From: a phage
Sequence record: OZ335963.1
Length of the DNA stretch: 64,000 bases
Strand: one strand, 5' to 3'
Positions 1 through 36,260 of the stretch are shown here, one piece after another. The notes beneath the pieces are model-generated. The model saw nothing but the letters and a program-made list of their open reading frames with translations, was not told the DNA's origin and searched no databases. Position numbers and translations under genes: made by a program. The stretch's first letter is position 1, and each line of letters starts with the position of its first letter.

Positions 1-1836
<1,836 letters not shown>

Positions 1837-1864: not shown

Positions 1865-3844
1865 ATGACTTTATTATCTCCGGGCATTGAGCTCAAAGAA
1901 ACTACGGTTCAAAGCACCGTGGTTAATAACTCTACTGGTACAGCAGCTTTGGCCGGTAAATTCCAGTGGGGTCCTGCTTTTCAGATCAAACAGGTTACAA
2001 ATGAAGTAGATTTAGTTAATACTTTTGGTCAACCTACAGCTGAAACTGCTGACTATTTTATGTCTGCAATGAATTTCTTACAATATGGAAATGATTTGCG
2101 AGTTGTGCGTGCTGTCGATAGAGATACCGCTAAAAACTCATCTCCGATTGCTGGTAATATTGAATACACTATTTCTACTCCAGGTAGTAACTACGCGGTT
2201 GGAGATAAAATCACAGTTAAGTATGTTTCAGAAGACATTGAAACGGAAGGTAAAATTACCGAAGTAGATGCTGATGGAAAAATTAAGAAAATTAGTATTC
2301 CTACCGCAAAAATTATCGCTAAAGCGAAAGAAGTCGGTGAATATCCAGCATTAGGTTCTAACTGGACCGCGGAAATTTCTTCGTCTTCATCTGGTTTAGC
2401 TGCAGTAATAACTCTTGGAAAAATTATTACTGATTCCGGTATTTTATTAGCTGAGATTGAAAATGCTGAAGCTGCTATGACAGCGGTTGACTTTCAGGCA
2501 AATCTCGAAAAATATGGAATTCCAGGAGTAGTAGCTCTTTATCCGGGCGAGTTGGGCGATAAAATCGAAATTGAAATCGTATCTAAAGCTGACTACGCAA
2601 AAGGTGCTTCTGCATTACTTCCAATTTATCCAGGTGGCGGAACACGCGCATCTACTGCCAAGGCAGTTTTTGGATATGGACCACAAACTGATTCGCAATA
2701 CGCTATTATAGTTCGTCGTAATGATGCTATTGTTCAAAGTATTGTTCTTTCAACAAAGCGTGGTGAAAAAGATATTTACGATAGTAACATCTACATTGAT
2801 GACTTTTTCGCAAAAGGCGGTTCAGAATATATTTTCGCAACTGCACAAAACTGGCCAGAAGGATTCTCTGGAATTTTAACTCTGTCTGGTGGATTATCAT
2901 CAAATGCTGAAGTAACAGCAGGAGATTTAATGGAAGCCTGGGACTTCTTTGCTGACCGTGAATCTGTTGACGTTCAGTTGTTTATTGCGGGTTCTTGTGC
3001 CGGTGAATCTTTAGAAACAGCATCTACTGTCCAAAAACACGTCGTTTCAATTGGGGATGCTCGCCAGGATTGCTTAGTACTGTGCTCACCGCCGCGTGAA
3101 ACTGTAGTTGGAATTCCTGTAACTCGTGCTGTTGATAACTTAGTCAATTGGAGAACCGCAGCAGGTTCATACACTGATAATAACTTTAATATCAGTTCAA
3201 CCTACGCAGCAATTGATGGTAACTACAAATATCAGTATGACAAATATAATGATGTAAATCGTTGGGTTCCATTAGCAGCTGATATTGCCGGTTTATGTGC
3301 AAGAACCGATAACGTTTCTCAGACTTGGATGTCTCCAGCTGGTTATAATCGCGGCCAGATTCTTAACGTTATTAAACTTGCTATTGAAACTCGCCAAGCT
3401 CAGCGCGACCGTTTATATCAAGAAGCTATCAACCCAGTAACTGGTACAGGTGGTGATGGTTACGTATTGTATGGTGATAAAACAGCTACTTCTGTTCCTT
3501 CTCCATTTGATCGTATTAACGTTCGCCGTCTGTTTAATATGTTGAAAACGAATATCGGACGTAGTTCAAAATATCGTTTGTTCGAATTAAACAACGCGTT
3601 TACTCGTTCATCATTCCGCACAGAAACTGCCCAATACTTACAGGGAATTAAAGCTCTCGGTGGAATTTATGAATATCGTGTAGTTTGCGATACAACAAAT
3701 AACACTCCGTCAGTAATTGATAGAAATGAGTTTGTTGCAACATTCTACATCCAACCGGCGCGCAGTATAAATTATATTACTTTGAATTTCGTCGCAACTG
3801 CTACTGGTGCAGACTTCGATGAGTTAACTGGTCTTGCAGGTTAA
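1865..3844 (+). CDS. 18: Contractile tail sheath protein
   Basis: 659-aa ORF, same length as T4 gp18; TATAAATA late promoter directly upstream. Confidence 0.96.
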   Translation: MTLLSPGIELKETTVQSTVVNNSTGTAALAGKFQWGPAFQIKQVTNEVDLVNTFGQPTAETADYFMSAMNFLQYGNDLRVVRAVDRDTAKNSSPIAGNIEYTISTPGSNYAVGDKITVKYVSEDIETEGKITEVDADGKIKKISIPTAKIIAKAKEVGEYPALGSNWTAEISSSSSGLAAVITLGKIITDSGILLAEIENAEAAMTAVDFQANLEKYGIPGVVALYPGELGDKIEIEIVSKADYAKGASALLPIYPGGGTRASTAKAVFGYGPQTDSQYAIIVRRNDAIVQSIVLSTKRGEKDIYDSNIYIDDFFAKGGSEYIFATAQNWPEGFSGILTLSGGLSSNAEVTAGDLMEAWDFFADRESVDVQLFIAGSCAGESLETASTVQKHVVSIGDARQDCLVLCSPPRETVVGIPVTRAVDNLVNWRTAAGSYTDNNFNISSTYAAIDGNYKYQYDKYNDVNRWVPLAADIAGLCARTDNVSQTWMSPAGYNRGQILNVIKLAIETRQAQRDRLYQEAINPVTGTGGDGYVLYGDKTATSVPSPFDRINVRRLFNMLKTNIGRSSKYRLFELNNAFTRSSFRTETAQYLQGIKALGGIYEYRVVCDTTNNTPSVIDRNEFVATFYIQPARSINYITLNFVATATGADFDELTGLAG

Positions 3845-35327: not shown

Positions 35328-35401
35328 TTTATTCTCCTTTGTTTGTGTAAGATAATACTATCACAAAGGAACCATACTGTAAACAACTTTGTGCAATCTT
35401 T

Positions 35402-35432
35402 GAAAAATAAAAAAGGACTCCCGAAGGAGTCC
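35402..35432 (-). terminator. Strong terminator after the 30.9-like gene
   Basis: GGACTCC-CGAA-GGAGTCC; minus strand continues UUUUUUAUUUUUC. Confidence 0.75.
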
Positions 35433-35437
35433 TCAAC

Positions 35438-35614
35438 TTATGCTTTCTGCTTACCAAAACGAGAAGCATCATCTCGAAGAACCGCACGTGCTCGGCGCAT
35501 GATCTTCTCAACAGTTTGATTGATACGAGAGTTCGACCCACGCTTGTAACCAGCGCGTTTAGAATCACCAACTTTCTTTTCAACTGCTTTCTTTGCTTTA
35601 GCTTGTTTTGCCAT
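35438..35614 (-). CDS. Small highly basic protein (30.9-like)
   Basis: 58 aa from ATG 35614 (MAKQAKAKKAVEKK...); followed by strong minus-strand terminator. Confidence 0.5.
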   Translation of the reverse strand: MAKQAKAKKAVEKKVGDSKRAGYKRGSNSRINQTVEKIMRRARAVLRDDASRFGKQKA

Positions 35615-35656
35615 TATAAATTCTCTTTTAAATGAAAATGCAGGACTTATTGGCAT

Positions 35657-36011
35657 TGCCTGCGAAAGCCCTCAAGGGGTACTTAGGTTTTGAATATTTA
35701 CCGACAGGATAACCATAAACCTCGTCAACATACCTTATAGCTCTTATCTGTTGCACACCGTTAGCTTAAAGGTTCCGGGTTCGATTTCTCGAGGATAAGA
35801 TATATACTGATGGATATATAGGCCTTGAGGCGTACTCCCGATTGGCCATCACCTCGGGGTAGCATGCACTTGCCGCTATAAGAATAACATTCAAGAGGTA
35901 CACCGTAAAACTGCCGGGGTCTTAAAACTATAATGATTCGCAAATCATTAATCAGACAGTTCGACGGCTCCTCGATTTTAGCTCACACTAAGGCAGTGAA
36001 TCTCCAATAAA
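35657..36011. other. Non-coding GC-richer island with local hairpins between rIII and the 30.9-like gene
   Basis: About 355 bp without a credible ORF on either strand; GC-richer than flanks; hairpins CCCGA/TCGGG (35837-35858) and TAATGATT-CGCA-AATCATTA (35931-35950). Confidence 0.5.
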
Positions 36012-36260
36012 TTACTTCAGTGTTACCACAAAGTGACGAACTGCTTTTCGTGCGGCAGAAGCCAGAGGCTTAGCATATTTAAGTTCATCTTTTTCCTGAA
36101 GCTCAACAGCTAATGCAGTTTGAGCAGGATTCAGATGTTTGAAATAACGCAGGATTTCAAGAGCTTCGGCTTCAACATCAATAGATGCGCCATAGTTTTC
36201 GTGACCATTATTCCATGCGTTTCGTTGCAGTTCAAGAGCGTGTTGTAATTGTTTAATCAT
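36012..36260 (-). CDS. rIII: rIII lysis inhibition accessory protein
   Basis: 82-aa ORF, T4 rIII length and position. Confidence 0.85.
   Translation of the reverse strand: MIKQLQHALELQRNAWNNGHENYGASIDVEAEALEILRYFKHLNPAQTALAVELQEKDELKYAKPLASAARKAVRHFVVTLK

Follow-up and report, generated by a model that had tools for sequence, protein, structure and literature searches.

A conserved 149-nt structured RNA cassette predicted between rIII and 30.9 of T4-like phages

Main finding

The spacer between the lysis inhibition gene rIII and gene 30.9 on the 64,000-nucleotide (nt) stretch of phage DNA analysed here (sequence record OZ335963.1; in the following the window) harbours on its minus strand a 149-nt element, positions 35734-35882, which is delineated by a covariance model, by covariation within its helices and by an insertion/deletion (indel) relative to phages T4 and RB55. 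Judged from the comparison of its homologues, the element is predicted to be a self-contained RNA domain with tertiary structure, extending from the 5' strand of its closing helix P1 to the corresponding 3' strand P1', and it constitutes a new RNA family. An original prediction, made from the letters alone, had pointed to an unexplained non-coding island in this gap and had considered, among other explanations, a small structured RNA; this part is borne out, as the conserved fold is proven by covariation.

Fold and covariation

The covariance model built from the alignment of homologues, R1, finds a single match on the 64-kb window (35734-35882, minus strand, 182.9 bits, E ~1e-36), a match beyond chance. 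Nucleotide n of the RNA corresponds to window position 35883-n, and all elements described in this section lie on the minus strand. The whole domain is closed by P1, with the 5' strand CUUAUAGC at 35875-35882 pairing with GCUAUAAG at 35734-35741. The P2-P3 arm (35821-35874) begins with the modelled helix P2, GGC/GCC (35872-35874 with 35821-35823), which is followed by a conserved 8/6 internal loop, AAGUGCAU at 35864-35871 facing CUCAAG at 35824-35829, and by P3 (35852-35863 with 35830-35845), the middle of which is the CCCGA/TCGGG stem (35837-35841 and 35854-35858) already recognized in the original prediction. The arm ends in the loop L3, UGAUGG (35846-35851), which forms a 6-bp kissing helix with the loop L4, CCAUCA (35808-35813), of the adjacent P4 hairpin UAUAUAU/GUAUAUA (35801-35820). 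The third arm (35742-35800) is built on P5 (35794-35800 with 35742-35748), which encloses P6 (35781-35792) with its GAAA, GNRA-like loop, P7 (35755-35760 with 35776-35780) with the conserved 15-nt loop GAACCUUUAAGCUAA at 35761-35775, and the segment J7/5, GCAACA, at 35749-35754, which is invariant in the alignment. As P1, P2, P4 and P5 adjoin each other with zero linker nucleotides, they form a perfect four-way junction.

The sequence of P1 varies in nearly every genus with the pairing being kept, and double compensatory changes are present in seven of its eight pairs. Compensatory changes are also found in six of the 12 pairs of P3, with 99.2% of the alignment cells paired, and in four of the seven stem pairs of P4 (99.5%), while P5, P6 and P7 are all 100% paired with four, two and one such pairs, respectively. 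The residues outside the helices are almost invariant, which concerns both strands of the internal loop, the 15-nt loop of P7 and GCAACA; the P6 loop is not strictly of the GNRA type, as UAAA and UAAUA variants exist. The invariant block GCUAACGGUG.GCAACAGAUA served to retrieve copies from IMG/VR and metagenomes.

With 10 sequences, RNAalifold predicts for the minus strand 39 pairs with compensatory double changes in 14. The refined model of 23 distinct sequences has 95.5% of cells paired, versus 27-42% when the partners are slid, and double changes in 23 of 47 pairs; in the full model, which covers 31 distinct sequences and includes the kissing helix, 27 of 52 pairs are compensatory and 96.6% of cells are paired, versus 27-41% in the slid controls. 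None of 500 shuffles reached any of the covariation measures with either the 23- or the 31-sequence set. The L3-L4 kissing helix was found upon scanning the unpaired columns for covariation. Three of its six pairs covary (C-G/U-A in 20/10, G-C/A-U/U-A in 27/2/2 and G-C/A-U in 29/1 sequences) with 98.9% of cells paired. Beyond L3-L4, no convincing covariation was found that would indicate a further tertiary pairing of the P7 loop or the internal loop. A UGCA/UGCA pairing of J2/3 with J7/5 was considered and fails in Erwinia phage Cronus, and K-turn, loop E and 11-nt tetraloop receptor motifs, compared by eye, remained unmatched.

Folding of the single sequence gives a z-score of -1.96 for the sense strand, the centroid of which reproduces the junction model, and of -0.87 for the antisense strand. 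Among the pairs, 62 G-U stand versus 10 A-C combinations. The G-U excess and the folding signal restricted to the sense strand argue for folding of the strand that is transcribed with rIII and 30.9. The original prediction had held that the lack of an Rfam or tRNA match together with a folding energy no better than that of shuffled controls would speak against a structured RNA. Formally, the matches are absent and the z-score is weak, yet these are poor tests because the decisive evidence is comparative, and the alignment of the rIII-30.9 interval across genomes, likewise proposed there, displays clean presence/absence along with compensatory substitutions.

Distribution and conservation

Most T4-like phages, including T4-type RB55, match by BLAST the flanks only. 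A core of 135 bp is, on the other hand, ~95% identical in phages of Klebsiella, Enterobacter and Kosakonia, the flanks of which are too diverged for megablast. Among 50,697 phage records, a sensitive search detected 408 with the core, present as one copy per genome, and the carriers span at least nine T4-like genera, including Tequatrovirus, Jiaodavirus, Kanagawavirus, Karamvirus, Moonvirus, Roskildevirus and Marfavirus. In every one of the Klebsiella, Enterobacter and Kosakonia phages, the core occupies the interval from rIII to the 30.9 homologue and keeps its orientation. IMG/VR contributes 40 rIII loci, 15 of them with the RNA. The RNA is an accessory element, and the T4-like phages possessing it are in the minority.

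Compared with the window, the core is 80-96% identical at the nucleotide level, rIII 67-76% and gp31 64-77%, and from this comparison the core appears to be under strong purifying selection, tighter than that on the neighbouring proteins. Two motif patterns, run against 5,426 E. coli genomes, 72,556 plasmids and 185,579 species genomes of bacteria and archaea, retrieved nothing similar. With respect to distant members, gapped motif scans of IMG/VR retrieved the known copies and random matches, the latter rejected by the covariance model, and the metagenome scan delivered T4-like contigs only.

Gain and loss as a cassette

In T4 and RB55, ~155 bp are missing at the position of the RNA as one clean indel. 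The sole carrier found outside of the T4-like phages is PKM.Lu.22.1, a phage of the Grimontviridae with a genome of 76 kb, with an RNA of 84.5% identity. Here the RNA begins 7 nt past the stop codon of an unrelated gene (PHROG 6599) and is followed at its 3' side by a small hairpin, an intrinsic terminator and an ECF sigma-factor gene. The sister phage PKM.Hi.22.6, with a 100% identical sigma-factor gene and near-identical flanks, is devoid of the P1-to-P1' unit plus a few bases, and the downstream hairpin and terminator are already present at this empty site. Five other Grimontviridae do not have the RNA, and the flanking genes in the family are unrelated to rIII and 30.9. Filled and empty sites, T4/RB55 on the one hand and the PKM phages on the other, consequently indicate for two phage families that the unit of gain and loss coincides with the structural unit of the RNA. 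Based on these comparisons, the cassette appears to have been exchanged across phage families without an accompanying gene or expression platform. The original prediction had alternatively suggested a decayed mobile insertion; the RNA is indeed a discrete inserted cassette, as the pairs of filled and empty sites demonstrate, but not a decayed one, its core being the best-conserved sequence in the neighbourhood.

The position within the rIII-30.9 spacer also varies. A short hairpin motif, GUACCCCUUGAGGGCUU, located upstream of 30.9 (35666-35682, minus strand) and unique in the window, is kept as GUACCCCUUGAGGGCUU(G/U)CG in the rIII-30.9 spacer of several T4-like genera. The RNA is found upstream of this hairpin in Tequatrovirus, Jiaodavirus and Kanagawavirus and downstream in Karamvirus PS49 and phage EcS1, and a conserved GTATG...AAAACC segment precedes the RNA in some T4-like phages and follows it in others. 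In Moonvirus, Roskildevirus and Karamvirus, P1 starts 4-6 nt past the rIII stop codon. As P1 abuts stop codons and the gap does not contain a promoter-like site, the RNA is probably co-transcribed as 3' untranslated region (UTR) of rIII and 5' UTR of 30.9.

P1 resembles an 8-bp terminal inverted repeat, but its sequence varies between lineages, and no target-site duplication is visible at the T4/RB55 or PKM junctions. With an unconserved repeat, no target duplication and one copy per genome, the RNA does not behave as a classical transposon or miniature inverted-repeat transposable element (MITE). In the same Grimontviridae neighbourhood, Cronobacter phage GAP52 has an HNH endonuclease gene (locus L087, 303-668) inserted two genes upstream of the sigma-factor gene, which is another sign of the plasticity of this locus.

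Neither a coding region nor a catalogued RNA

The gap had been described as non-coding, and stops are indeed present in all six frames of every homologue. The homologues are 146, 149, 150 or 158 nt in length, differences which are not multiples of three, and substitutions in the core are compensatory in the helices without codon periodicity. The six-frame stops and the frame-breaking lengths show the 'hypothetical protein' annotated over the core in ACG-C40 to be spurious. This reading frame, ACG-C40_0208a (locus L001, 1662-1856), is one example of 'hypothetical protein' coding sequences drawn across the RNA, which are found in numerous other GenBank records as well; one record labels the RNA 'terminator' and two call the neighbouring gene a glycogen branching enzyme. 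These coding-sequence, terminator and branching-enzyme labels are likely annotation artefacts.

Rfam 15 gives no match in 35615-36011 at E <= 10 and none at gathering thresholds in the entire window. A weak, below-gathering Rfam match to Atu_C8 (35399-35482, minus strand, E = 0.0012) lies on the terminator hairpin of 30.9; membership in Atu_C8 was dismissed as spurious, the match being driven by the terminator. A tRNA remnant, as formerly envisaged, finds no support, as ARAGORN reports zero tRNA or tmRNA genes and no tRNA cluster in the window and the tRNA model RF00005 does not match in the gap at E <= 10. The T-loop-like GGGTTCGATT (35777-35786) which had led to this idea does exist; it is, though, the antisense of the P6/P7 strands and not the T-loop of a tRNA. 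The equally suggested ribozyme fragment is not sustained either, since no known ribozyme or Rfam family is matched.

A consensus scan finds no sigma-70-like promoter in the gap, nor is there an own terminator. A weak -35/-10 pair of T4 early type upstream of P1, noticed by eye, was discarded, as it is not conserved in T4. In the full-text literature, including papers on PeSL elements, viral RNA motifs, ToxIN escape and TifA, a published description of the 149-nt RNA was not found.

ToxI-like units beside the RNA

In JD18 (Jiaodavirus), the RNA is immediately preceded by 35 nt that resemble the 35 nt just downstream of the RNA in Grimontviridae phages. ToxI, with the sequence AGGTGATTTGCTACCTTTAAGTGCAGCTAGAAATTC, is the RNA antitoxin of the type III toxin-antitoxin abortive-infection system ToxIN (Blower 2012, PMC3475682, Table S3), from which phage phiTE escapes by pseudo-ToxI, a phage-encoded mimic (PMC3475682). 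By its sequence, the JD18-type unit is identified as ToxI, and the Grimontviridae version matches the pseudo-ToxI of phiTE. The unit of JD18 (locus L003, ~2638-2670, minus strand) is single and near-intact with an AAAAU tail running into P1; that of PKM.Lu.22.1 (L008, ~1455-1487, minus strand) is equally single and near-intact and is also present at the empty site of PKM.Hi.22.6 (L090).

A search with the JD18 segment revealed in addition three perfect 36-nt repeats in tandem within the tRNA cluster of Pectobacterium phage DU_PP_I (L123, 528-632), two tandem copies between tRNA genes of the T5-like Klebsiella phage pKMKP103 (L124, ~601-665) and a single unit ahead of a terminator in Escherichia phage FH3 (L125, ~603-636). 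DU_PP_I is a phage of the Vequintavirinae, and the units of DU_PP_I, pKMKP103 and FH3 are unannotated, with Rfam reporting no ToxI family there.

The distance between unit and RNA differs among the loci. The unit is situated 28 nt upstream of the RNA in Jiaodavirus- and Marfavirus-type loci, ~123 nt upstream and right after the rIII stop codon in the Tequatrovirus-type loci L014, L021 and L035, and 4 nt downstream in PKM.Lu.22.1. On the minus strand of the window, a diverged single ToxI/pseudo-ToxI-like unit (35974-36007) directly follows the rIII stop codon, as it does in T4/RB55 (L002, ~1211-1254). L014, L021 and L035 possess well-preserved units (AGGTGATTCGCTACCTTAAGTGCGGCTAGAAAATC) at the same site after rIII with an identical downstream flank. 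Since ~8 of 35 positions differ between the window/T4 unit and that of L021 and a 14-mer match to ToxI alone is at chance level, 35974-36007 is called ToxI-derived by positional homology only; it is putatively a decayed ToxI-like copy. No report of pseudo-ToxI units in T4-like phages was found in the literature. Judged by the sequences of these units, the rIII-30.9 spacer appears as a recurrent home of RNA-based counter-defence elements.

The 149-nt RNA itself shares with ToxI the 9-mer ACCUUUAAG in the P7 loop (35761-35775), for which we estimate a chance probability of ~0.015, and its P6 loop with the next base reads GAAAU, a ToxN-type cleavage motif that is not present in all homologues. 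Tandem repeats were not detected in the RNA. The notion that the RNA is a ToxI or pseudo-ToxI was rejected, as there is no tandem repeat, the identity covers 9 nt only and the RNA has 149 nt and a single copy, and so was the notion that it presents a site for ToxN, the P6 GAAAU and AAAU flanks being unconserved.

Comparison with known RNA elements

With ToxI and pseudo-ToxI, the RNA has in common that both are protein-free RNA modules in phage spacers with a patchy occurrence, shared by unrelated virulent enterobacterial phages, and the units adjoin the RNA in Jiaodavirus, Marfavirus, other Tequatrovirus-type loci and the Grimontviridae phage. Yet ToxI is a 36-nt pseudoknot, usually in tandem, flanked by ToxN sites and with a bacterial original, whereas the new RNA consists of one four-way junction of 149 nt without conserved AAAU flanks and without a counterpart found in bacteria or plasmids.

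Riboswitch aptamers such as those for purine, lysine and cobalamin are alike in the closure by P1, the multi-helix junction, the kissing loop between adjacent arms and the invariant residues. The new RNA, in contrast, matches no Rfam aptamer, has no conserved downstream gene family or expression platform and is located right after a stop codon. The hairpin and the four-way twister-sister ribozymes equally feature a linker-free four-way junction, arms with conserved loops and a life as stand-alone cassettes, but the new RNA is larger, has no covariance-model similarity to them and lacks an evident cleavage site.

Among the RNAs of T4 itself, the stable RNAs rnaC and rnaD, also called species 1 and 2 RNAs, are encoded in the tRNA cluster with lengths of 139 and 119 nt. 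Like the new RNA, they belong to T4-type phages, are small and non-coding and have no known function. Homology was dismissed, as R1 with filters off has no match over the rnaC/rnaD interval; the single match in L089 (E = 4.6) is elsewhere in the locus. PeSL elements are mobile cassettes consisting of an early promoter and one stem-loop (Arbiol 2010, PMC2839356; Comeau 2014, PMC4122927). Both they and the new RNA are short, non-coding and situated at the boundaries of indels within the hyperplastic regions of T4-like genomes; the new RNA differs in that it is without a promoter-like site and has a complex conserved fold of seven helices. The two PeSL papers do not mention rIII or 30.9.

Possible function and alternatives

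The reading tentatively preferred here, held with somewhat less than even confidence, is that the RNA is a self-contained, trans-acting counter-defence or factor-binding RNA and not a regulator of a particular neighbouring gene. The RNA would be transcribed within the rIII 3' UTR and 30.9 5' UTR from early to late, host RNases might free it from the mRNA, and the folded RNA would bind in trans a conserved factor of the host, which may be a protein or a small-molecule signal, the outcome being counter-defence or host takeover in enterobacterial hosts. A trans-acting module is favoured over a regulator of neighbouring genes because the two phage families flank the RNA with unrelated genes, its transfer did not include an expression platform and its distance to 30.9 is not conserved. 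Action on a host factor is suggested by the autonomous fold, by a sequence held above the level of the flanking proteins and by pseudo-ToxI in the spacer. An enterobacterial host is the only common denominator of the carriers.

The association with pseudo-ToxI suggests counter-defence in particular. It is conceivable, though rather doubtful, that the RNA represents a new class of protein-free counter-defence, mobile and aptamer-like, which would neutralize a conserved component of enterobacterial immunity either through capture of a defence protein or nuclease or by acting as a sponge for a small immune signalling molecule. Together with the pseudo-ToxI units, the RNA would then form an 'anti-defence RNA island' downstream of rIII.

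Several observations weigh against a trans-acting counter-defence RNA. No host homologue was encountered in the bacterial genomes and plasmids searched, unlike in the case of pseudo-ToxI with its bacterial original, and a simple antitoxin mimicry of the pseudo-ToxI kind is therefore disfavoured. Riboswitch aptamers just as typically have a junction closed by P1 with a kissing loop. Kanagawavirus and Karamvirus PG7 have only a weak P1, the thermodynamic signal of the single sequence is borderline (z = -1.96), and the adjacency to ToxI could stem from recombination at shared ToxI sequence or from a permissive spacer instead of a shared function.

A regulator acting in cis on the rIII/30.9 transcript, be it a riboswitch, a processive antiterminator of the put/EAR kind or a 3'-UTR element protecting the mRNA, is plausible on account of the aptamer-like architecture and the place between a stop codon and a terminator-bounded gene, and nevertheless we consider it unlikely. 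The P1-closed junction, the loop-loop helix and the invariant unpaired residues are classic for aptamers; in both families the RNA is always inside an mRNA, right after a stop codon and ahead of a gene with a terminator, and an own promoter is not apparent upon scanning of the gap. Against this stand the unrelated flanking genes of the two families and the hairpin and terminator of the Grimontviridae, which predate the cassette, so that no expression platform came along. The downstream gene is 30.9 in T4-like phages versus an ECF sigma factor in the Grimontviridae, incoherent for a riboswitch; distance and sequence up to the 30.9 start vary widely, with the RNA on either side of the GUACCCC... 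hairpin, and rIII and 30.9 are expressed in T4 without the cassette. Processing of the polycistronic transcript between rIII and 30.9 by a new self-cleaving or otherwise catalytic RNA would fit the four-way junction, which joins arms with conserved loops as in the hairpin and four-way twister-sister ribozymes, the near-invariant residues outside the helices and the fact that small ribozymes are common as stand-alone intergenic cassettes in phage genomes. This is improbable, as no ribozyme covariance model matched even at E <= 10, 149 nt is large for a self-cleaver without a nameable cleavage site and the data do not need catalysis.

The mobility of the RNA can also be taken as its sole property. 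A selfish or neutral element moving between co-infecting phages, intron- or MITE-like with P1 as terminal inverted repeats, would explain the precise presence/absence bounded by an 8-bp inverted repeat, the crossing between phage families and the at least three positions relative to backbone landmarks in the rIII-30.9 spacer. It is judged no more probable than a ribozyme: all 408 records have one copy per genome, the terminal repeat is unconserved, neither a target duplication nor a linked transposase or homing endonuclease is present, and the strong purifying selection on unpaired residues and the kissing helix points to the folded RNA itself as being functional. Highly improbable is a structure of single-stranded DNA, a cruciform or four-way junction serving as signal for replication, recombination or packaging. 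A perfect four-way junction is, to be sure, a DNA recombination intermediate as well, and a G-T bias is compatible with one folded DNA strand; loops of GNRA type, the kissing helix and bulged conserved purines are, however, RNA-like, T4 and most of its relatives get along without the element, and in both phage families it is the transcribed sense strand that folds. Finally, a small protein-coding gene or a decayed tRNA gene has next to no probability and is regarded as excluded: although an open reading frame of 60-64 codons overlaps in some genomes and GGGTTCGATT is present on the plus strand, the stops in six frames of every homologue, the frame-breaking indels, the compensatory substitutions and the negative results with ARAGORN and the Rfam tRNA model contradict it.

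The locus and its neighbouring genes

The 461 bases around the gap match ~950 T4-like records, with Escherichia phage vB_EcoM_ACG-C40 as the closest at 98.9% identity; the genome of the window is a Tequatrovirus. The gene order on the minus strand is cd, 31.2, 31.1, 31, rIII, 30.9 and 30.8 onward. rIII (36012-36260, minus strand) encodes the lysis inhibition accessory protein (PHROG 1457, E = 1e-43), and 30.9 (35438-35614, minus strand) a basic protein of 58 amino acids (PHROG 1427) with an intrinsic terminator at its 3' side.

As usually annotated, 30.9 occupies 35438-35656 (minus strand) with 72 codons, and under this annotation the gap of 355 bp, 35657-36011, is as originally delimited. The methionine at 35614 (MAKQAKAKK...) is conserved in other genera, and the LZ9 record uses the same start. 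It is probably the real start of 30.9, and the upstream ATG giving 72 amino acids in the T4, RB55 and ACG-C40 annotations is probably not; with the conserved start at 35614, the spacer between rIII and 30.9 amounts to 397 bp. The gap had further been thought to be bounded by the strong terminator of 30.9; a terminator scan places this intrinsic terminator at 35413-35434 (minus strand), thus downstream of 30.9 instead.

The gap was correctly perceived as richer in guanine and cytosine (GC), with a GC fraction of 0.437 versus 0.36 in the window. The excess is concentrated in the core, 35734-35882, which with 0.47 has a value reached by just 1.2% of the 149-nt stretches of the window.

An AT-rich inverted repeat had been noticed as part of the gap. 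It is present, read from the sequence, as a perfect 8-bp hairpin UAAUGAUU-UGCG-AAUCAUUA followed by UAGUUUU (35931-35950, minus strand); it is, though, located outside of the RNA in the Tequatrovirus-specific spacer between rIII and the 149-nt RNA, which T4/RB55 and the loci L014, L021 and L035 also have. From its sequence, the hairpin may be a weak terminator or a stabilizer of the rIII transcript.

Significance

T4-like phages are among the best-studied viruses, and the carriers, phages of Klebsiella, E. coli, Shigella, Enterobacter and Yersinia, include many candidates for therapy; nonetheless, the RNA is unannotated or mislabelled as protein in the records examined. To our knowledge, very few RNA accessory genes of phages are known beyond tRNAs, introns and pseudo-ToxI. 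Here, a large and by prediction tertiary-structured RNA is dispensable and appears to be traded between unrelated phage families as a bare cassette. The occurrence of ToxI-like units after rIII in many T4-like phages, with the copy in T4 apparently decayed, bears on how these phages handle ToxIN. The natural contrasts of PKM.Lu.22.1 versus PKM.Hi.22.6 and of T4 versus ACG-C40-like phages make the function of the RNA directly testable. If counter-defence or ligand binding holds true, the RNA would stand for a new class of phage-host interaction and would provide a compact natural RNA scaffold.

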